Shown here piece after piece: positions 11,522-57,814 of a DNA stretch of 64,000 bases. Source of the DNA: Thermodesulfobacteriota bacterium (GTDB lineage: Bacteria > Desulfobacterota > Desulfobacteria > Desulfobacterales > JAUWMJ01); the NCBI GenBank assembly GCA_034189135.1, contig JAXHVO010000059.1, positions 7,336 to 71,335 of the forward strand, in the 5' to 3' direction. Position 1 is the stretch's first letter. Each line of letters begins with the position of its first letter. The notes beneath the pieces are model-generated. The model was not told the origin of the DNA and made no database searches. It saw only the letters and a list, made by a program, of their open reading frames with translations. Both the position numbers and the translations under genes were made by a program.

Positions 11522-11555
11522 GTGCATAACCTCGCAACGAAATTCAGTAGTCGTT

Positions 11556-11653
11556 TACGGTTTGAAACTTGAAAATAGAAAGTAGAAATTAGGGAGAGAT
11601 GAAACGAGTTTGCGAATTGAAAGCCAAATTTCCAATTTCTATTTTCTAATTTC
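11556..11653 (+). repeat. Family-2 GAAA-rich intergenic repeat, copy 2a
   Basis: ACGGTTTGAAACTTGAAAATAGAAAGTAGAAATTAGGGAGAGATGAAACGAGTTTGCG...AAGCCAAATTTCCAATTTCTATTTTC. The purine arm pairs with the pyrimidine arm. It lies in the fliR-flhB gap. Confidence 0.7.
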
Positions 11654-11732
11654 TTCGTTTAATAAAAGCTTAAAAATTTATTGTTAACTATAATCTGTCA
11701 TTTTTATCTTGTTTGGTTATTAACTAATTCTT

Positions 11733-19691: not shown

Positions 19692-19698
19692 ATGGAGG

Positions 19699-20030
19699 AT
19701 CGGGGAGTTTTTCAATCTGTACTCAGTTCGTTCGGGGAAGCGCCCATTGGCCCGTATCAGCCTTAACAATCATTTCGAGAAACTGGCGTACGGTCCGCCT
19801 AGGCGGACTGAGATTCGATTTGAACCAGCCCCAAGGGACAGAATCCCACGGCAGCGTTGATCGTCTCTGCCTGTGTGTATTTAACTGAGAAGATAGGGGG
19901 CGTGTACAGAGTGCTGGGATTATTTGTTAAGGCTGATACGGGCCAATGGGCGCTTCCCCGAACGAACCACTAACAATCATTAAAGCTCAAACGGTTCATA
20001 AAAAAGGCCTAGGCAAAAATTGCCCGGTGG
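19699..20030 (+). repeat. Family-1 palindromic element, copy A
   Basis: 44-nt arms 19726-19769 and 19924-19967 are perfect reverse complements (44/44). They flank a 154-bp core. Outer arms are GATCGGGGAGTTTTTCAATC... and ...AAAATTGCCCGGTGGC. Confidence 0.85.
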
Positions 20031-20089: not shown

Positions 20090-20105
20090 TGGTACATCTT
20101 TTGCA
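20090..20105 (+). promoter_or_regulatory. sigma54 promoter candidate upstream of flgF
   Basis: TGGTACATCTTTTGCA with GG-N10-GC spacing, 46 nt upstream of the flgF ATG. Confidence 0.55.
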
Positions 20106-30714: not shown

Positions 30715-31569
30715 ATGGATTCAAATATTATTGCAAAGGTAGAGGCGTTCCCCAGCCTGCCCGGTGCAACCACAAAACTGATTTCCCTGCTTGATGATTC
30801 CAATGCTGCCGTGGTCGAGATAGAAGAAATCTTACGTATGGATCCAGGTCTTACCGCCAATGTCTTAAAGCTGTCAAACTCTGCTTACTTCGGGTTTCCA
30901 TCTAAAATAGGGTCTGTACACAAGGCAATTGTCCTGCTGGGTGTAAAAAGATTAATGCAAATTGTGATGACATCCTGTGTAAACTCCCTGATGAGTAAAT
31001 TTGTTCCGGGTTACGACTTGCCGCCGGGTGAAATGTGGCGTCATTCAATTGCAGTATCTGTTGCCGCAGAAGGCCTGATTGCTGAGCTGAATACTTCTGA
31101 AGCTGATGAAATATTTACTGCCGCACTTCTTCATGACGTGGGCAAGCTTGTTATGGGGGAGCTCATGAAGGACGATATTAATAAAATTGACAAAATAGTA
31201 TCCCAGGATGTTTCATTTGAAGAAGCAGAGCATATCGTCTTTGGAATCGACCATGCCCAAATAGGTGCAAAAATACTTGAAAACTGGGGATTGCCCGCAG
31301 AAATTGTAAGTGCTGTAAGATGGCACCACGATCCTGATGCTGCCGATGAATCAAGCACGTTAATCGATATCGTTCATGTGGCAAATGTTTTATGTTTAAT
31401 GATCGGTATCGGTGTGGGCAGAGAGGGCCTCCAGTACAGACCGTCACCGGTGGTGACCCAAAGGCTGGGGATAAAGCCGGCGAACCTTGAAAAGGTTGCC
31501 AGTTATACACTGGATTGGGTCAGTGATTTGACGGATGTTTATGAAATAAACCAGGAAGTTGATGCTTGA
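30715..31569 (+). CDS. HDOD domain signalling protein (copy 1)
   Basis: FPSLPGATTKLISLLDDSN...ILRMDPGLTANVLKLSNSAYFG and LLHDVGKLVM are HDOD hallmarks. Confidence 0.88.
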   Translation: MDSNIIAKVEAFPSLPGATTKLISLLDDSNAAVVEIEEILRMDPGLTANVLKLSNSAYFGFPSKIGSVHKAIVLLGVKRLMQIVMTSCVNSLMSKFVPGYDLPPGEMWRHSIAVSVAAEGLIAELNTSEADEIFTAALLHDVGKLVMGELMKDDINKIDKIVSQDVSFEEAEHIVFGIDHAQIGAKILENWGLPAEIVSAVRWHHDPDAADESSTLIDIVHVANVLCLMIGIGVGREGLQYRPSPVVTQRLGIKPANLEKVASYTLDWVSDLTDVYEINQEVDA

Positions 31570-36671: not shown

Positions 36672-37180
36672 TCCGTAATTTTAAGAACAAGGAAACTGAA
36701 AATTACTACCTTGAACCGGGATATATATTCCTGGCTGAAAAACCCACCTCTATATCCACAGTGCTTGGATCATGCGTTTCCGTGTGCCTCTATGACCGCA
36801 AAAAAAAAATCGGCGGGATGAATCATTTTCAAATTCCTTTTGTAACTGATTCAACCCAGGCAACTGCAAGATTCGGGAATGTGGCTACCATTACCCTAAT
36901 CCGCATGATGATCCATGGCGGTTCCAAAATAAAAAATCTGGAAGCCCAGGTATTGGGCGGGGCATACAACAGTAAGGTGTCAGCCAAAGACATCGGTTTT
37001 GAGAATATCATGGCGGCAAAAAAAATTCTTGCCCGGGAGCGGATACGTGTCACCTCAGAAGATATTCGGGGAGGCAAAGGAAGAAAGATCGTTTTTAATA
37101 CATCAACAAACGATGTTGCCGTATTTAAAGTCGATAAACTCAGAGAGTCGGACTGGTATCCCTATAAGAGCAATAGATAG
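36668..37180 (+). CDS. cheD: CheD paralog (copy 2)
   Basis: VLGSCVSVCLYDRKKKIGGMNHFQIP matches the CheD catalytic pattern. GTG start is translationally coupled to the upstream ORF. Confidence 0.82.
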   Translation: MIRNFKNKETENYYLEPGYIFLAEKPTSISTVLGSCVSVCLYDRKKKIGGMNHFQIPFVTDSTQATARFGNVATITLIRMMIHGGSKIKNLEAQVLGGAYNSKVSAKDIGFENIMAAKKILARERIRVTSEDIRGGKGRKIVFNTSTNDVAVFKVDKLRESDWYPYKSNR

Positions 37181-37361
37181 TTTAACATCGGGCATTATTC
37201 ACTCACACTCCCAAAAGCATATTAAGCTGCTTACGTTCGATCAAAACCCGACAGCAGCAAACAACGACATCTTAAATCACGCCTTGCTTTCAAAGATATC
37301 AATAAAACTTGCCAATCAATTGACACGTCTTGCCAATAATTTGGCACTTTCACTTTGAAGC

Positions 37362-37449
37362 AAAAAAAAATAAAAACCCTGCCGGGGGGATGGCAGGGTT
37401 TTAAGGAGGCGGGAATGAAGGAAAGGAGAGAAACTTCATTCCGTTTGAT
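37362..37449 (-). ncRNA. Predicted sigma54-dependent small RNA (about 88 nt) with anti-SD motifs
   Basis: Lies downstream of a perfect minus-strand sigma54 promoter. Hairpin 1 is GGAAUGAAG/CUUCAUUCC with loop UUUCUCUCCUUUC. The linker is CGCCUCCUUAA. The terminator hairpin is AACCCUGCC/GGCAGGGUU followed by UUUAUUUUUUUUU. No ORF is present. Confidence 0.45.
37375..37402. terminator. Bidirectional Rho-independent terminator
   Basis: 9-bp GC-rich stem AACCCTGCC/GGCAGGGTT. The + side has TTTT. The - side has a much stronger T-tract (complement of the A9-T-A5 run at 37362-37376). Confidence 0.7.
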
Positions 37450-37459
37450 TTAATAAGTA

Positions 37460-37475
37460 TGCAACTTTAGTGCCA
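37460..37475 (-). promoter_or_regulatory. sigma54 promoter (minus strand) driving the predicted sRNA
   Basis: The minus strand reads TGGCACTAAAGTTGCA, a perfect TGGCAC-N5-TTGCA consensus. Confidence 0.65.
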
Positions 37476-37542
37476 AGTAAGTTTGGAAGTTGTAAGGTCT
37501 AAAAACGGGAAACCTGGGTGACAAACAAAACAATCGATGTGG

Positions 37543-37877
37543 GATCGGAGAGTATTTCAATCTCCACTCAGTTCGTCCGGAGGAGCGCCCATTTGCCCGT
37601 ATCAGCCTTAACAAATAAGTCCGGCACTCTGTACACGCCCCCTATCTTCTCAGTTAAACCCATACAGGCAGAGACGATCAACGTTGTCGTGGGATTCTGT
37701 CCTTTGGGGCTGGTTCAAATTGAATCTAAGCGAGATAGCTGCCGAACGCCGGTTTCTCGAAATGATTGTTAAGACTGATACGGGCAAATGGGCGCTCCTC
37801 CGGACGAACTACTAACAATCATTAAAGCTCAAACGGTTCATAAAAAAGACCATTGATAAGAAACTCACCGAGCCATC
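37543..37877 (+). repeat. Family-1 palindromic element, copy B (core inverted)
   Basis: Arms 37571-37614 and 37767-37810 pair 43/44. The outer arms are oriented as in copy A, but the 152-bp core is the reverse complement of the A/D core. Confidence 0.85.
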
Positions 37878-37909
37878 AATTATTTTATATACAATAATCG
37901 AATTTGGAA

Positions 37910-37925
37910 CGGCACAAAGATTGCA
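37910..37925 (+). promoter_or_regulatory. sigma54 promoter candidate upstream of cheW
   Basis: CGGCACAAAGATTGCA with GG-N10-GC spacing. Confidence 0.6.
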
Positions 37926-38689: not shown

Positions 38690-40567
38690 ATGTTTAAGAA
38701 TATGAAAATAAGTACCAAAACAAGTTTGGTTATCGCCGTTGCCTTGATTTCGATTTCAGTTATTTTAGGTTTTGTCTCAGTTATGCAGTTGATGCGAAAC
38801 GGGAAGCTGGCTGTTGCCCAGATAGAAAGGCTAGGCACTGATAACATTGAAAGGATAAAGGCGGACGGAAAAAGCCAAATACAAGCCTTTCGTGAGGAAC
38901 GCATGTTGCGGGAAAAGGAATACCTGAAGTCACAGGTTCAGACAACTATGAGTGTCCTTAAGAAAGCCTTAAAAGATGCCACATCCTTAGACAGCGGAAG
39001 TGTACTAACTGAACAGGTTAAAAAGGCCATCATACTTGAACAACAGGAGAGCATCGCGGGTTTTATCGGCGCACTTCGCTATGGTCCCGAAAATAAGGAT
39101 TACTTCTGGATCAACGACATGCATCCGAAGATGGTCATGCATCCTTATAAACCGCAGCTGAACGGTAAAGATCTCTCTGAAAGCAAGGACCCGAACGGCA
39201 AAAGGCTATTTGTGGAATTTGTCAAAGTCTGTCGTGAACAGGGTGAAGGATTCGTGGATTATTACTGGCCCAAGTACGGTGCAGACCAGCCGCAACCCAA
39301 ACTTTCATTTGTAAAGCTTTTTAAAGAATGGAACTGGGTGGTGGGCACCGGAGTATATATCGATGATATCGACAAAATAGTGAATATCAAAAGGGGAGAA
39401 TTGGAGAACGAAATAAAAGCGGTTATGGCTGATATGAACAAACAGGTTGATTCAACCAAACGAGAATTTCAAAAAAATGTCCGACAGGTCATTATGCTAA
39501 CAAGTGTAATTTCGCTGATTGCTTTGGCGGTGGTATTGGCCGGGTCTTATTTGTTTGCCAAATGTAATATAACAAAACCGATCAGCCGAATCATAGAGGG
39601 GATGAATGAAAGCGCCGAGCAGGTGGCATCCGCATCCGGGCAGGTTTCATTTTCCAGTCAGTCTCTGGCGGAAGGCTCATCGGAGCAGGCGGCCTCCATT
39701 GAAGAAACATCAGCATCCTTGGAAGAGATGTCCTCCATGACAAAGCAGAATGCCGAGAATTCAAAACAGGCGGATGCTCTAATGCAGGAGTCAAACCAGA
39801 CGGTAGGCCGTGCCAGCACATCGATGACAAATCTTAAGGATTCCATGATCGATATCACAAACGCAAGCCGGGAGACATCCAACATTATAAAGACCATTGA
39901 TGAAATTGCCTTCCAGACCAATCTTCTGGCACTGAATGCAGCAGTAGAAGCAGCCAGAGCCGGTGAAGCCGGAGCCGGATTTGCTGTGGTGGCCGAAGAG
40001 GTTCGAAATCTGGCCATGCGCTCTGCAGATGCCGCTAAGAACACTGCTGAACTGATAGAAGACACGGTTAAGAAAGTAAAAAATGGATCCGAGCTGGTAA
40101 ATACGACTTCTGATGCTTTTGCTGAAGTGGCTGCCAGTTCCGCCAAGGTTGCCGAATTGATCGGAGAGATTGCTGCAGCGTCAAACGAACAGGCGCAGGG
40201 AATTGATCAGGTCAATGTAGCGGTCACCGAAATGGACAAGGTCACCCAGTCGAATGCCGCCGGAGCAGAGGAATCCGCGTCAGCTTCGGAACAGATGAAT
40301 GCACAGGCGGAAGAGATGAAGCGTATGGTGAATGAGCTCGTAGCGATGGTCGGCGGAAGTGCAAAAGGAGCCGGAGATGGGGCAGGATCATTCGGGTGGA
40401 GAAAAATGATTCCAGGCGATGGAGCAGGAAAAAGACCAGAAATATCCCAAAAGGCTCCTGCTGAAACACCGGGCAAGGGAGTAAAGAAGATTGTGCATCA
40501 CCAGGCAAAGGAAGTTAATCCCAAACGGGTCATTCCTTTGGATGATGCGGAATTTAAAGATTTCTAA
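38690..40567 (+). CDS. Methyl-accepting chemotaxis protein with a periplasmic Cache-type sensor
   Basis: Two TM helices flank the Cache-like segment [25 protein letters not shown]...[12 protein letters not shown]. The MCP signalling domain reads [37 protein letters not shown]. The C-terminus is EFKDF. Confidence 0.93.
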
Positions 40568-40581
40568 ATTTAAAGATTAAA

Positions 40582-41682
40582 ATGGGATTGGCGTTAATAA
40601 AGAAAAAGAGTGGTAATTCTGCCGGAGAAGACCTGTCGGAAATTCTGAAAAGCAGCGATGAAAAGCGGCACTTTTATCTACTTATAATAAGGGCGCTGCT
40701 GGTATTTATTAAGGATTTTTCACTGGATTTAAAGGAAATAGACTCTGAAGAGTTCAAAAGGAAGATAGATGGTTTAGCCGAAAAACTCTTATCTGATGAG
40801 AGGACCAAAAAGCTGCAATCGGGTTTTGAAAAAAACAAAAAAAACATAGTTACCTATATTAAAAAGCAGAAAGAATATTTGAAAGATCGTGAGGACGAGT
40901 TTAAAGAAATTATTGATCTGCTGACAAAAGCGATGGCAGTGGCTGATCACGACAACCAGGTTTATAATGAAAAGATTTATCAGCAGAGCGAGAAGCTGGA
41001 AAAACTAACTTTGCTTGACGATATAAGGAAAATAAAGAATGAGCTGATAATACAAGTTGAAAATATAAGAAGGACTGTAAGGAAAAAGGATTTACATGAT
41101 AGCGAGAAGCTGGAAAAATTGTCCCAAAAGGTAAATTCTCTTAATGTTGAGCTTGAAAAGGCAAAGGAAGAATCTGTAAAAGACGGCCTGACCGGTATTT
41201 ATAACCGGAGAGCCTTTGACATATATATCAGGAAGCTGGTTGAGCGAAACACTGTTACAAAGGCACCTTTTTCATTACTGCTTTTAGATATAGACGATTT
41301 TAAGAAAATTAATGATAATTTCGGTCACCAGACCGGAGATCGTTTGCTGGTAGCCACAGCCCGCAAGTGCAAAGAATTTATAAGAAGTGATGACTTTTTG
41401 GCTCGTTACGGTGGAGAAGAGTTTGTTGTTGTTCTGCCTGGGGCTTCACTGAGAAATGCCGCAAAAAAGGGTAAAATTATTTGTAAAGAGATAGCAAAAG
41501 CCAGATATGCTTTAGAGGGGAGCAAAGAAGATACCATCATTTCAATTACTCTTAGCATTGGCGCCAGTATTCACAAAAAAGGTGATACAGTGGAAACTGT
41601 GATAGAGCGTGCAGATAAAGCCCTTTATGCTGCAAAGCAATCTGGGAAAAATCGGATCATATCTGAAAAAGAAATTAAATAA
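40582..41682 (+). CDS. Diguanylate cyclase (coiled-coil N-terminus plus GGDEF domain)
   Basis: DGLTGIYNRRAF, LLLLDIDDFKKINDNFGH and the active site RYGGEEF. Confidence 0.9.
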   Translation: MGLALIKKKSGNSAGEDLSEILKSSDEKRHFYLLIIRALLVFIKDFSLDLKEIDSEEFKRKIDGLAEKLLSDERTKKLQSGFEKNKKNIVTYIKKQKEYLKDREDEFKEIIDLLTKAMAVADHDNQVYNEKIYQQSEKLEKLTLLDDIRKIKNELIIQVENIRRTVRKKDLHDSEKLEKLSQKVNSLNVELEKAKEESVKDGLTGIYNRRAFDIYIRKLVERNTVTKAPFSLLLLDIDDFKKINDNFGHQTGDRLLVATARKCKEFIRSDDFLARYGGEEFVVVLPGASLRNAAKKGKIICKEIAKARYALEGSKEDTIISITLSIGASIHKKGDTVETVIERADKALYAAKQSGKNRIISEKEIK

Positions 41683-43094: not shown

Positions 43095-44333
43095 ATGTTT
43101 AATTTAAATGAAATTTTAATAGCCTCTGCTGTTATCTCAGTAGGTGCATTTATGGTAGCGGCTGTCTTGTACATGATTTATAAAAAGACACTAACTTTTA
43201 TGCTTTGGGTAAGATTGATGCCTGGAATAATCATTCTCTGCATCGATCTTTTTACCTGGGGAAGATTTGGCGTTTATAATGTGCTGATTAGTGCAGTTAT
43301 GCCGCTCATAGGTGTTAGCCTTATGGTTGCGAACCTTATCTACGTTGCGAAGAAACTGTCTGTTCCCCTGATACGTATTATCGAGGGCTTGAGCGAAGGA
43401 TCTAACCAGGTGGCATCCGCTTCAGGACAGATTTCGTCTGCAAGCCAGTCACAGGCGGAAGGTGCTTCAGAGCAGGCTGCATCCATAGAGGAAACATCTT
43501 CTTCCCTTGAAGAGATGTCGTCCATGACCAAGCAAAATGCTGACAATGCCGGCCAGGCGGATAAGCTTATGCAGGAAGCCAATCAGGTCGTTGTTGAAGC
43601 GAATGATGCCATGGGCAAACTGACCACTTCTATGGAGAATATCTCCGAAGCAAGTGAAGAGACACAGAAAGTAGTAAAGACAATAGATGAGATAGCCTTC
43701 CAGACAAACCTGCTTGCACTGAATGCAGCAGTAGAGGCCGCCCGTGCCGGTGAAGCAGGGGCCGGTTTTGCTGTAGTAGCGGAAGAGGTAAGAAATCTTG
43801 CACTACGTTCTGCGGATGCAGCCAAAAGCACGGCAGAACTTATTGAAGGTACCGTCAAGAAAGTAAGTGATGGGTCGAAATTAGTGGAAAGGGCCAACGA
43901 AACCTTCAGCAAAGTGGAAAAGAGTGCTTCTAAGGTAGGTGAGCTGGTAGGTGAAATAGCCGCTGCATCTAATGAACAGGCCCAGGGTATTGAGCAGGTG
44001 AACACAGCGGTAGCTGAAATGGATAAGGTTGTACAGACAAATGCCGCCAATTCTGAAGAAACGGCCTCCGCATCTGAAGAGATGAATGCCCAGGCTGAAG
44101 AAATGAAGGGGTTTGTCAGGAGTCTGTCAGTTCTGGTCGGAGAGAGTGAGAATGGAAAAGATAACGAGCAGGACGAGGACGCTGCGCTCATGCAACCAAA
44201 AACCAAACCTCAGAGGCTCGCTTTCGCTGCAAAGATGAAAGCAGGCACTGGGGAAATGGCTGTTGTTCAAAAAAAAGAAGTGAAACCGAATCAGGTGATC
44301 CCTTTGGATGATGCTGATTTTCAGGATTTTTAA
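43095..44333 (+). CDS. Methyl-accepting chemotaxis protein (membrane-embedded N-terminus, no periplasmic domain)
   Basis: About four predicted TM segments precede a signalling domain highly similar to the 38690 MCP ([37 protein letters not shown]). The C-terminus is DFQDF. Confidence 0.92.
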
Positions 44334-54198: not shown

Positions 54199-54231
54199 TA
54201 TTGGTCTACTTGTAACCGTTCAATGAATGAT

Positions 54232-54336
54232 GAATTTAGAAAATAGAAATTGGAAATTTTAGGCCTTCACCTCGTAACAACGTCTTATCTTATCCTAATT
54301 TCTACTTTCTGATATCAAGTTTCAAGCCGTGAACGG
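54232..54336 (-). repeat. Family-2 GAAA-rich repeat, copy 2b (between feoA and feoB)
   Basis: The reverse complement aligns with copy 2a: ...CGGCTTGAAACTTGATATCAGAAAGTAGAAATTAGG...AAAATTTCCAATTTCTATTTTCTAAATTC. Confidence 0.7.
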
Positions 54337-54343
54337 CTTCTTT

Positions 54344-56294: not shown

Positions 56295-56342
56295 TTTCTT
56301 AAATTATGTTTATCCTCTTAACCTGTTAGAATTAATTGAGGA

Positions 56343-56668
56343 GGCCGGGGGTTTCTCCTTAAAGGTTTTTGGTAAGCCGTTGCGTTTTAATGATCGTCAA
56401 CGGTTCGCCTTGGGGATGGCCTATTCGCCCGTACAAGCCTTAACAAATTATTACAGTGCTTTGCAGCCGCCCCCTATATTCTGCGTTACGCTCATACAGG
56501 CAGAGACGATCATCGCCATCGTGGGAATCTGTCTACTGGGGCTGGCTCAAATCTTATTTCAGCGAGATAGCTGCCGTACGTCAGTTCCTCGATATTATTG
56601 TTAAGGCTTGTACGGGCGAATAGGCCATCCCCAAGACGAACAGAGCAGGGATTGAAAAACTCCCCGAT
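56343..56668 (-). repeat. Family-1 palindromic element, copy C (whole element in reverse orientation)
   Basis: Arms 56403-56446 and 56598-56641 pair 43/44. The long outer arm is on the left and the short GATTGAAAAACTCCCCGAT arm is on the right. The core-to-arm relationship is the same as in copy A. Confidence 0.8.
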
Positions 56669-56701
56669 TTCTCAATTAATTATAAATACGATAAACTCAA
56701 A

Positions 56702-57424
56702 ATGAAATCAATCTGTAAAAAATTAAGTTTTTTTTCCGATAGTTTCCTGCTCAGAGGAATACTTCATATACCGTCTGCTGAGAAAGGTCCGGTTGTGATA
56801 GGATCCCACGGTCTTTTAAGCAACAGCAGTTCACCAAAACAAATTGAGCTGGCCCGAAGATGCAACGATCTGGACATTGCCTATTTTAGATTTGACCATC
56901 GAGGCTGCGGGGAAAGTGAAGGTAATTTTAAAGAAGTCACTTCGCTTGAAGCAAGGCGTATCGATATCCTGAGTGCCATTGAAACAATTCGAAACCAGGG
57001 ATATATGGGCAGCAGGATAGGACTTTTCGGGAGCAGCCTGGGAGGTGCGGCATGCATATCAACGGCAAGTGCAACTAAAATAGATTCCATGGTTGTCAAC
57101 GCAGCCCCGCTTAGAAGTCGTACGATAAAAAAGTCGGATGAAATAAAATGCCAAGCAGAATATCCAAGATTTTCCTTTGACATATCGGACCGGATTTCCG
57201 GGATTGATAATATTCTCATTTTCCACGGGGATGCCGATGATGTGGTTCCATTTTCCAATGCACTTGAGCTATACCAGAAGGCAGGGAACACTAAGAAGCT
57301 AATCATACAGAAAGACGGAGATCATTTGATGAGCAATAAGACCCACCAGAAGGAGTTCATTGGCGAAGCAGGGATATGGTTTAAGGAAAGGCTGTTTGCA
57401 ACCCAATCACCAAGATACAGTTGA
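56702..57424 (+). CDS. Alpha/beta hydrolase family protein
   Basis: 240 aa with nucleophile elbow GSSLGG, HGDADDVVP and a catalytic His region GDHLM. Confidence 0.8.
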   Translation: MKSICKKLSFFSDSFLLRGILHIPSAEKGPVVIGSHGLLSNSSSPKQIELARRCNDLDIAYFRFDHRGCGESEGNFKEVTSLEARRIDILSAIETIRNQGYMGSRIGLFGSSLGGAACISTASATKIDSMVVNAAPLRSRTIKKSDEIKCQAEYPRFSFDISDRISGIDNILIFHGDADDVVPFSNALELYQKAGNTKKLIIQKDGDHLMSNKTHQKEFIGEAGIWFKERLFATQSPRYS

Positions 57425-57458
57425 TCCCTGTTGAAGGGTGAATCGAGACAGTTATATT

Positions 57459-57797
57459 GATGGGTCGGGGAGTTTTTTAATCTCTACTCAGTTCATCCGG
57501 AGAAGCGCCCATTTGCCCGTATCAGCCTTAACAATGATTTTGAGAAACCGGCGTACGGTCCGCCTAGGCGGACTGAGATTCGATTTGAACCAGCCCCAAA
57601 GGATAGAACCTCACGGCAGCGTTAATCATCTCTGCCTGTATGGATTTAATTGAGAAGATAGGGGGCGTGTACAGAGTGCTGGAATTATTTGTTAAGGCTG
57701 ATACGGGCAAATGGGCGCTTCTCCGGATGAACCTCTATCAACCATTAAATAACAAACAATTCACCAAAAATGCCATTAATAAGAAACTCCCCGATGC
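57459..57797 (+). repeat. Family-1 palindromic element, copy D
   Basis: Arms 57491-57534 and 57689-57732 pair 44/44. The core is about 90% identical to copy A. It fills the convergent gap between the hydrolase gene and cinA. Confidence 0.85.
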
Positions 57798-57814
57798 CTC
57801 AGTTATGCTATTCT

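Follow-up and report, generated by a model that had tools for sequence, protein, structure and literature searches.

Short DNA segments enclosed by inverted repeats (IRs) are known from several kinds of system. Invertons such as fimS with FimBE, hin with Hin and the polysaccharide promoters of Bacteroides with Mpi are short IR-bounded segments found in both orientations, and global invertases of the Bacteroides type act on invertons dispersed over the genome. In flip-flop isomerisation, as in the plastid IR and the yeast 2-micron plasmid, the arms are hundreds to thousands of base pairs long and are exchanged by general recombination or by FLP, and hairpin-associated small inversions are found in plastid non-coding DNA. 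Template-switch (quasipalindrome) mutagenesis, as described by the Ripley model, leads both to homogenisation of the arms and to inversion of the spacer (PMC8604942, PMC8794818). Bacterial miniature inverted-repeat transposable elements (MITEs) have been reviewed together with palindromic intergenic repeats such as Correia/NEMIS of Neisseria, ERIC/IRU, RUP and Nezha (PMC3184786). Here we describe a repeat present in four copies, A to D, in a stretch of 64,000 nucleotides from a Thermodesulfobacteriota bacterium (assembly GCA_034189135.1, contig JAXHVO010000059.1, positions 7,336 to 71,335; hereafter the window). The repeat is a hitherto undescribed nested palindrome of MITE-like character whose core occurs in two orientations, and it joins the properties of MITEs with IR-mediated spacer inversion. 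Our search of the literature found no paper describing such an element in Desulfobacter-type bacteria.

The initial annotation of the window had singled out a 240-bp segment, copy B, as an inverton-like locus. Comparison with related copies shows that this segment is the inner part of a larger non-coding unit, a nested palindrome of ~345 bp (Table 1). The unit is bounded by terminal inverted repeats (TIRs) of ~20 bp, of which the left reads ATTGAGGGGTCGGGGAGTTT and the right is its complement, AAACTCCCCGAyCCCTCAAT; the left end of the element as a whole reads (A)TTGAGGGGTCGGGGAGTTT, with the complement ~50 nt beyond the right inner arm. Unequal spacers, a left one of about 12-15 nt (~25 nt in copy B) and a right one of ~50 nt, lead to the inner IRs, which in the family anatomy are a perfect 44 bp and enclose a conserved core of ~151 nt (~151-154 nt across the four window copies). 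The arms are 100% complementary in copies A and D and 98% complementary in B and C (inverted-repeat pairs I11-I14 of the window). Copy A has lost its right terminal repeat by deletion and ends near 20009. The cores fall into two subtypes, B and C carrying GGCAGCTATCTCGCT and A and D carrying GGTCCGCCTAGGCGGACT, the latter corresponding to a GTCCGCC-TA-GGCGGAC hairpin; the difference amounts to a swap of hairpins at one core site, CAGC-TATCTC-GCTG versus TCCGCC-TA-GGCGGA. Four core blocks, CGTACGGCAGCTATCTCGCT, GATTTGAGCCAGCCCCAG, GATCGTCTCTGCCTGTATG and GAAGATAGGGGGCG, are near-invariant across the family. Each element is predicted to fold into a single giant hairpin, with -161.7 kcal/mol (z = -13.9) for copy D and -139.6 kcal/mol (z = -10.6) for copy B. 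All four copies are intergenic and lie in unrelated contexts: A between a DUF2802 gene and flgF, B between cheD and cheW, C between divergent genes for a trmA-like methyltransferase and a hydrolase, and D between convergent hydrolase and cinA genes.

Table 1. Copies of the nested palindrome and neighbouring sigma54-type sites (positions of the window; IR, inner inverted repeat; TIR, terminal inverted repeat)
Feature	Position	Strand	Remarks
Copy A, whole	19693..20009	+	A state; IRs 19726-19769 and 19924-19967; core 19770-19923
Copy A, inner part	19726-19967	+	44-bp IR + core + 44-bp IR
Sigma54-type site of flgF	20090-20105	+	
Sigma54-type -24/-12 site TGGCACTAAAGTTGCA	37460..37475	-	perfect TGGCAC-N5-TTGCA; points away from copy B
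Copy B, whole (ends approximate)	37536..37881	+	B state, core inverted relative to outer arms; IR, core and IR are flanked by spacers of ~25 nt (left) and ~50 nt (right) and, outermost, by the two TIRs
Copy B, left 44-bp inner IR	37571..37614	+	differs from the right arm at IR position 36 only (C versus T)
Copy B, core (151 nt)	37615..37765	-	the family's A orientation is read on the minus strand
Copy B, right 44-bp inner IR	37766..37809	+	
Sigma54-type site CGGCACAAAGATTGCA	37910..37925	+	one mismatch; upstream of cheW; conserved in L034
Copy C, whole	56330..56681	-	A state; IRs 56403-56446 and 56598-56641; core 56447-56597
Copy C, inner part	56403-56641	-	44-bp IR + core + 44-bp IR
Copy D, whole	57457..57801	+	A state; IRs 57491-57534 and 57689-57732; core 57535-57688
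Copy D, inner part	57491-57732	+	44-bp IR + core + 44-bp IR

The core of copy B is flipped inside its 44-bp IRs. Compared with the core of A, it gives 133 matches out of 154 as the reverse complement and 89 out of 154 in the forward orientation, and the corresponding counts against the core of D are 130 and 88. The outer arms of B match those of A directly (25/30 on the left, 40/42 on the right), and core and flanks thus agree with the initial description of B as an element whose outer arms run as in A and D around an inverted core. Copy C had been read as a reversal of the whole element that keeps the A-type relation between core and outer arms, and this also holds: after reverse complementing, its core matches that of A at 113 positions in the forward and 93 in the other orientation. 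The position of the flip and of the left arm stands as first given, with a slight correction of the core, from 152 bp to 151 nt, and of the right arm, both of which now end as listed in Table 1. Alignments of the cores reach the first and the last core base in both states, so that the inversion runs end to end, and its breakpoints lie inside the arms, as proposed for an exchange across the two 44-bp repeats.

The dimorphism is not confined to the window. A search for further copies in either state (related sequences are denoted by L numbers) brought the number of complete copies to 24, of which 14 are in the A state and 10 in the B state, a count that compares different loci and not one locus in two states. 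Copy B is the sole flipped copy within the window, as had been claimed, but one of many in the family. Partial copies add about two in the A state and four in the B state, and the B state is in the majority in a related metagenome-assembled genome (MAG), GCA_905147875.1. Neighbour-joining trees were built from the whole normalised element, from the inner part alone and from the outer arms alone, and on these three trees Fitch parsimony gives a minimum of 8-9 state changes. Close relatives illustrate the pattern: L012_A and L018_B share arms starting with GTTAGACTGGGG and are in opposite states; L022_A, L004_B and L013_B, which are of mixed state, have GTTTGTCC arms and a distinctive core in common; and L014_A, the nearest relative of window copy B, is in the opposite state. 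The nearest neighbour has the same state in 13 of the 24 copies, and six of these 13 belong to orthologous pairs. The initial annotation had argued from copies B and C, which share a core subtype and differ in state, that state is independent of subtype, and the family bears this out. We conclude that the orientation dimorphism is recurrent and family-wide, with at least eight independent switches.

Orthologous copies, on the other hand, always agree in state across assemblies (window C with L011 and L007/L024; L016 with L019), and the closest pair of paralogues in opposite states is 9% apart. Fixation of orthologous loci in one state had been named at the outset, together with reads supporting the assembled orientation alone, as a sign of a past event rather than of a working switch. 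Such fixation is found at the C locus in three lineages and for L016/L019; the relatives have empty sites in place of copies A, B and D, apart from a deletion remnant of A in L041/L042, and no orthologous locus with opposite states was seen among those compared.

The two 44-bp arms of each element evolve together. They differ from each other by 1.5 positions on average within a copy, compared with 7.8 between copies. When the arms are scored as a helix, 97.7% of the cells are paired, and 19 of the 44 pairs, comprising 87 cells, have changed on both sides. None of 500 shuffles reaches the observed level of co-change, and pairing falls to 32-44% when the register is slid. Most of the variation lies at positions 4-24, outside the 20-mer used for finding the copies; the inner 20 nt of the IR (GCCCGTAyMAGCCTTAACAA) are near-invariant across the family, which the search pattern partly imposes. 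At the C locus the co-change can be followed in place. Once the species had separated, different substitutions reached fixation in the two arms of each orthologue, so that the window reads TCTTGGGG, L011 reads TCCGGGGG and L007 reads TTCGGGGG. Such lineage-specific changes in both arms are direct evidence for copying from arm to arm at one locus. One base upstream of TCTTGGGG the arms of window C still differ (T versus C), a further change being present in one arm only.

The 32 mismatches between arms comprise 10 of the G-U type, 7 of the A-C type and 15 of the transversion type, with no strand bias, and one-sided G-U intermediates are rare (9 of 968 cells). Since G-U is not favoured over A-C and about half of the mismatches are transversions, the matching acts on DNA identity and not on an RNA stem. 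The arms as an RNA stem are ruled out by the same pattern, which shows no G-U bias on either strand. As a separate observation, IR positions 35-36 hold 8 of the 32 mismatches of the family, including the only one in copy B (37606 versus 37774); they may be a hotspot near the inner end of the arm or a site that escapes homogenisation.

The element is mobile. Two large DNA scans, one of a single genome per species and one of metagenomes, both used one arm motif. In the former the motif was found in a single Desulfobacteraceae MAG and in the latter on 25 contigs, many of them from CAJHXW01 (= GCA_905147875.1), whose FlhA is 89% identical to that of the window. Copies are multiple and dispersed: the window has four in its 64 kb, and the related MAG has them on at least 14 contigs. 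Empty sites were found for three of the four window copies. L007 and L024, with ~86% nucleotide identity, lack copy D at the orthologous site. In L032, L033 and L034 (three assemblies representing two distinct sequences) the spacer between cheD and cheW does not contain copy B, and the two sigma54-type promoters lie ~40 bp apart there; B is thus a lineage-specific insertion and not an ancestral control region. Copy A is absent from L035-L040 and L043-L047 and is represented in L041/L042 by a deletion remnant of ~90 nt (at about 2262-2345), in which the left TIR (TCGGGGATCGGG) runs directly into the right spacer and its TIR, everything between them (left spacer, core and the two 44-bp arms) having been lost. 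Only copy C is common to the window and its relatives (L007, L011, L024). Truncated copies occur in L005, L006 and L020.

These properties place the family among MITE-like mobile elements, in a clade of uncultured marine Desulfobacteraceae (Thermodesulfobacteriota). As in MITEs, the unit is shorter than 400 bp and lacks a transposase, its TIRs surround a non-coding core, and it is multi-copy, intergenic and able to form a long stem-loop; filled and empty sites alternate between relatives, and truncated and internally deleted derivatives exist. The TIRs, the non-coding core (within the limit of ~400 bp) and the dispersed filled and empty sites agree with the working definition of a bacterial MITE (PMC3184786), with gaps at two points. 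At A, B and D the divergence between filled and empty sites is too great for the junction of a target-site duplication to be placed; the elements have inserted into AT-rich sequence similar to the TIR tip (TTAATT / ATTAGA). A cognate autonomous insertion sequence (IS) with the same ends was not found in the window and L001-L029, where all 41 outer-TIR matches adjoin a core or, at contig ends, a partial copy; neither solo outer elements nor a transposase-bearing parent appeared among these matches. Unlike MITEs, the element contains, inside its TIRs, another inverted repeat that is perfect and much longer (44 bp), its centre occurs in both orientations relative to asymmetric outer arms, and one old copy is conserved far above neutral expectation. 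An origin from a phage, plasmid or virus was rejected, as the plasmid, phage and viral collections searched gave no match to the element. The four apparent invertons of this motility locus are therefore insertions of one mobile repeat and not a set of regulatory invertons, which warns against over-calling phase variation from IR anatomy.

Copy C stands apart by its conservation. It is 93-95.5% identical to its orthologues in L007, L011 and L024, compared with 68-76% at the third codon positions of the two flanking genes (Fisher p ~1e-17). The core is the best conserved part (94-98%), and the neighbouring intergenic region does not align. By this measure copy C is under strong purifying selection, and conservation so far beyond that of neutral sites suggests that the element, or at least copy C, is functional in some way. 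Two divergent start codons follow at distances of ~35 and ~20 nt from its ends, and the corresponding promoters must therefore lie in or across it. Some copies may thus have been recruited for a function, one that would be worth finding in these abundant uncultured sulfate reducers.

As first noted, copy B lies between two divergent sigma54-type sites (Table 1). Copies A and B end ~25-80 bp upstream of the sigma54-type promoters of flgF and cheW, a placement in which the element occupies the zone expected for the sites of enhancer-binding proteins. No sigma54-type sites were found beside C or D, of which C spans a divergent promoter region, and none inside any of the four copies.

Copy B had also been proposed as a possible active DNA switch, and this the data do not bear out. 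The core has no conserved promoter or open reading frame (ORF), B is a lineage-specific insertion, and orthologues share their state. A scan of the cores for sigma70-type promoters gave no conserved match, with one weak hit, in A only, at chance level; the sigma54 pattern search likewise gave no conserved promoter within the invertible segment. No ORF is conserved in the segment, and a coding function is ruled out by stops and by indels of 1 nt and 4 nt between copies. The reported lack of an invertase gene in the window was confirmed, in that none of 40 ORFs scanned against Pfam has a recombinase, integrase or resolvase domain. The ends of the arms were also compared by eye with integron attC (GTTRRRY) and dif/XerCD motifs and were rejected, the motifs standing in the wrong relative orientation. 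A regulated, recombinase-driven phase switch of chemotaxis genes is thus probably not what copy B represents; the flip is probably a structural polymorphism generated over evolutionary time.

For the enzymology and the rate of the flip, which we infer, a homology-driven and enzymatically unspecialised inversion between the element's own 44-bp arms is the explanation we lean towards, with somewhat better than even confidence. Exchange between the two arms of an element would invert the core, either by template switching at the hairpin during replication or by homologous recombination between the arms, and the same exchange would copy substitutions from arm to arm and so keep the arms identical. 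The inversion might take place at or soon after transposition. The two signatures of such a process are both present: the arms are identical while the copies diverge, and the spacer has inverted recurrently with breakpoints in the arms. That the arms co-evolve strictly along their full 44 bp speaks for a process driven by homology or replication. A site-specific recombinase needs just a short crossover site. The coupling of concerted arm evolution with inversion of the enclosed segment recalls flip-flop isomerisation. The element likewise resembles template-switch products in that its arms are kept perfect by copying and its loop is inverted recurrently and reversibly, for which no dedicated enzyme would be required. 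It differs from them in being mobile and multi-copy and in its dimensions, documented spacers being a few base pairs in yeast genes and the element having a spacer of 151 nt between 44-bp arms, nearer the range where RecA-type recombination could act. For a loop and arms of this size we regard arm recombination as equally plausible as template switching. With its dozens of copies, the family offers a natural experiment on arm homogenisation and loop inversion, between few-bp template switching and kb-scale flip-flop.

Several observations weigh against an unspecialised exchange between the arms. Template-switch inversions have been documented with spacers of 3-5 bp (PMC8604942), and here the spacer has 151 nt. 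A double-stranded loop of 151 bp is, for its part, stiff for RecA-type synapsis. The near-invariant inner 20 nt of the IR resemble a binding site for a recombinase or transposase, although the search pattern accounts for part of this invariance. The negative result for recombinases covers 64 kb of the genome and is compatible with a trans-acting invertase encoded elsewhere. Finally, the purifying selection on copy C implies function, so that the orientation of the core could matter.

Some of these points would fit a true inverton family, in which a site-specific recombinase encoded in trans acts on the conserved inner arms and flips the core reversibly, the four window loci and many more being phase-variable cassettes on a mobile element. 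The anatomy of an invertible segment between inverted repeats, similar repeats dispersed over many loci as in described invertons, the interspersion of both common states on the tree, the near-invariance of the inner arms and of several core blocks, and the selection at the C locus all speak for it, as does the existence of global invertases that act on dispersed sites. We nevertheless consider it unlikely. An IR-bounded segment does occur in both orientations, across different loci, but unlike known invertons the element has no recombinase nearby in the window and neither a promoter nor a coding part in the segment, and its whole cassette, outer arms included, is mobile. Orthologues in different species are always in the same state (the C locus in three lineages; L016/L019), and arm identity over the full 44 bp with co-substitution in place is neither needed nor made by site-specific recombination. 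The segment of 151 bp is also, to our knowledge, shorter than any classical invertible segment.

Of similarly low probability, in our view, is that orientation is set at transposition, at random for each insertion, and is stable thereafter. This could come about if a foldback or single-stranded intermediate reversed the loop, or if a module of IR, core and IR entered a fixed site in the outer element either way round. It would readily explain why state is uncorrelated with relatedness among paralogues and constant among orthologues, why B and D, both recent lineage-specific insertions, differ in state, and why even the closest paralogues of opposite state are as far apart as they are. It is set back by the structure of the copies, in which the inner module is never found without outer arms and the outer arms occur without the inner module just in the L041/L042 remnant; the latter is an imprecise deletion that also took the left spacer, and not an empty outer element. 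There is, besides, no target-site duplication at the IR boundaries, and no transposase or parent element was found in the sequences searched.

A slightly less probable reading combines mobility with switching: a selected cassette, spread by MITE-like transposition, whose conserved 151-nt core is toggled by a recombinase, either of the host or specific to the element, or by programmed processing of the hairpin. If it were true, such a mobile inverton would seed orientation-dependent control elements beside promoters.

We consider it rather improbable that the element is a gene or processing cassette for a structured non-coding RNA, with the 44-bp stem as a substrate of RNase III, whose cleavage would free the core, and the flip as a switch between sense and antisense products. 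The very stable predicted hairpin, the swap of core hairpins between subtypes and the selection at C would suit such a role, and C, which abuts two start codons, must be transcribed. The core itself, however, folds weakly: the consensus of 23 cores (RNAalifold) has -9.0 and -12.5 kcal/mol on the two strands, with almost no covariation, and this speaks against the core as a structured RNA. The mismatches in the arms likewise lack the G-U preference of an RNA stem, one-sided G-U intermediates are rare, and no consensus promoter or terminator belonging to the element was found. Searches of Rfam 15 returned just a tRNA for the window at the gathering score, and nothing meaningful at E <= 10 for copy D or at E <= 5 for the region of copy B.

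An assembly artefact, with the 44-bp IR of copy B wrongly resolved by a short-read metagenome assembler, is very improbable. The window does come from a MAG, Logan contigs built from the same runs with k=31 end exactly within the arms, and locus B has no independent assembly. However, standard reads and the large k-mers of common assemblers are longer than 44 bp and so span the junctions directly; each of the two states is, moreover, found in many separate assemblies, and independent assemblies of one locus agree (L016/L019; L007/L024/L011/window C).

The repeat family leaves its mark on short-k assemblies, which it fragments. Logan k=31 contigs of the source runs SRR24907504/5 end in or beside the 44-bp arms; among them, L028 (window 56606-57520), L029 (from 19980) and L031 (from 37819) end in arms or right spacers, and the right spacers of A and B are near-identical. 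Public metagenome contigs bearing FlgF are in many cases just 1-4 kb long.

Downstream of the TGGCACTAAAGTTGCA promoter, at 37362-37475 on the minus strand, lies a candidate sigma54-dependent small RNA. It would be ~85 nt long, with two hairpins (-28.9 kcal/mol, z = -7.4), and is closed by an intrinsic terminator; its C/U-rich loop (UUUCUCUCCUUUCC) and a CCUCCUU linker resemble anti-Shine-Dalgarno sequences. Both the candidate and its promoter are conserved in L032 and L034. It reaches the threshold of no Rfam family, the best being ar14 with 28.6 bits against a gathering score of 58.8. The spacer between cheD and this small RNA is ~270 nt longer in L032 (2723-3190) and L034 (2577-3050) than in the window (37180-37373). 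The longer spacers are similar to each other by eye, contain small called ORFs of 45-53 aa, and could represent another non-coding element or a small gene lost in the window lineage.

A second dispersed repeat, AT-rich and of ~130 nt (AAATTTCCAATTTCTATTTTCTAATTTC...), is found at 11546-11675 and, inverted, at 54210-54341 (pairs I7 and I15; 76-82% identity). Both sites are intergenic, one between two genes for flagellar export that match Pfam Bac_export_1 and Bac_export_2 (probably fliR and flhB) and the other upstream of feoB.

The window also encodes two paralogous methyl-accepting chemotaxis proteins, which are 74-79% identical over repeated segments (39587-40089 versus 43374-43876, and 40507-40567 versus 44273-44333), one segment lying at the 3' end of each gene. 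Together with the HDOD genes at 30715 and 44429 and the GGDEF gene at 40582, these paralogues suggest a partly duplicated module of chemotaxis and cyclic di-GMP signalling.

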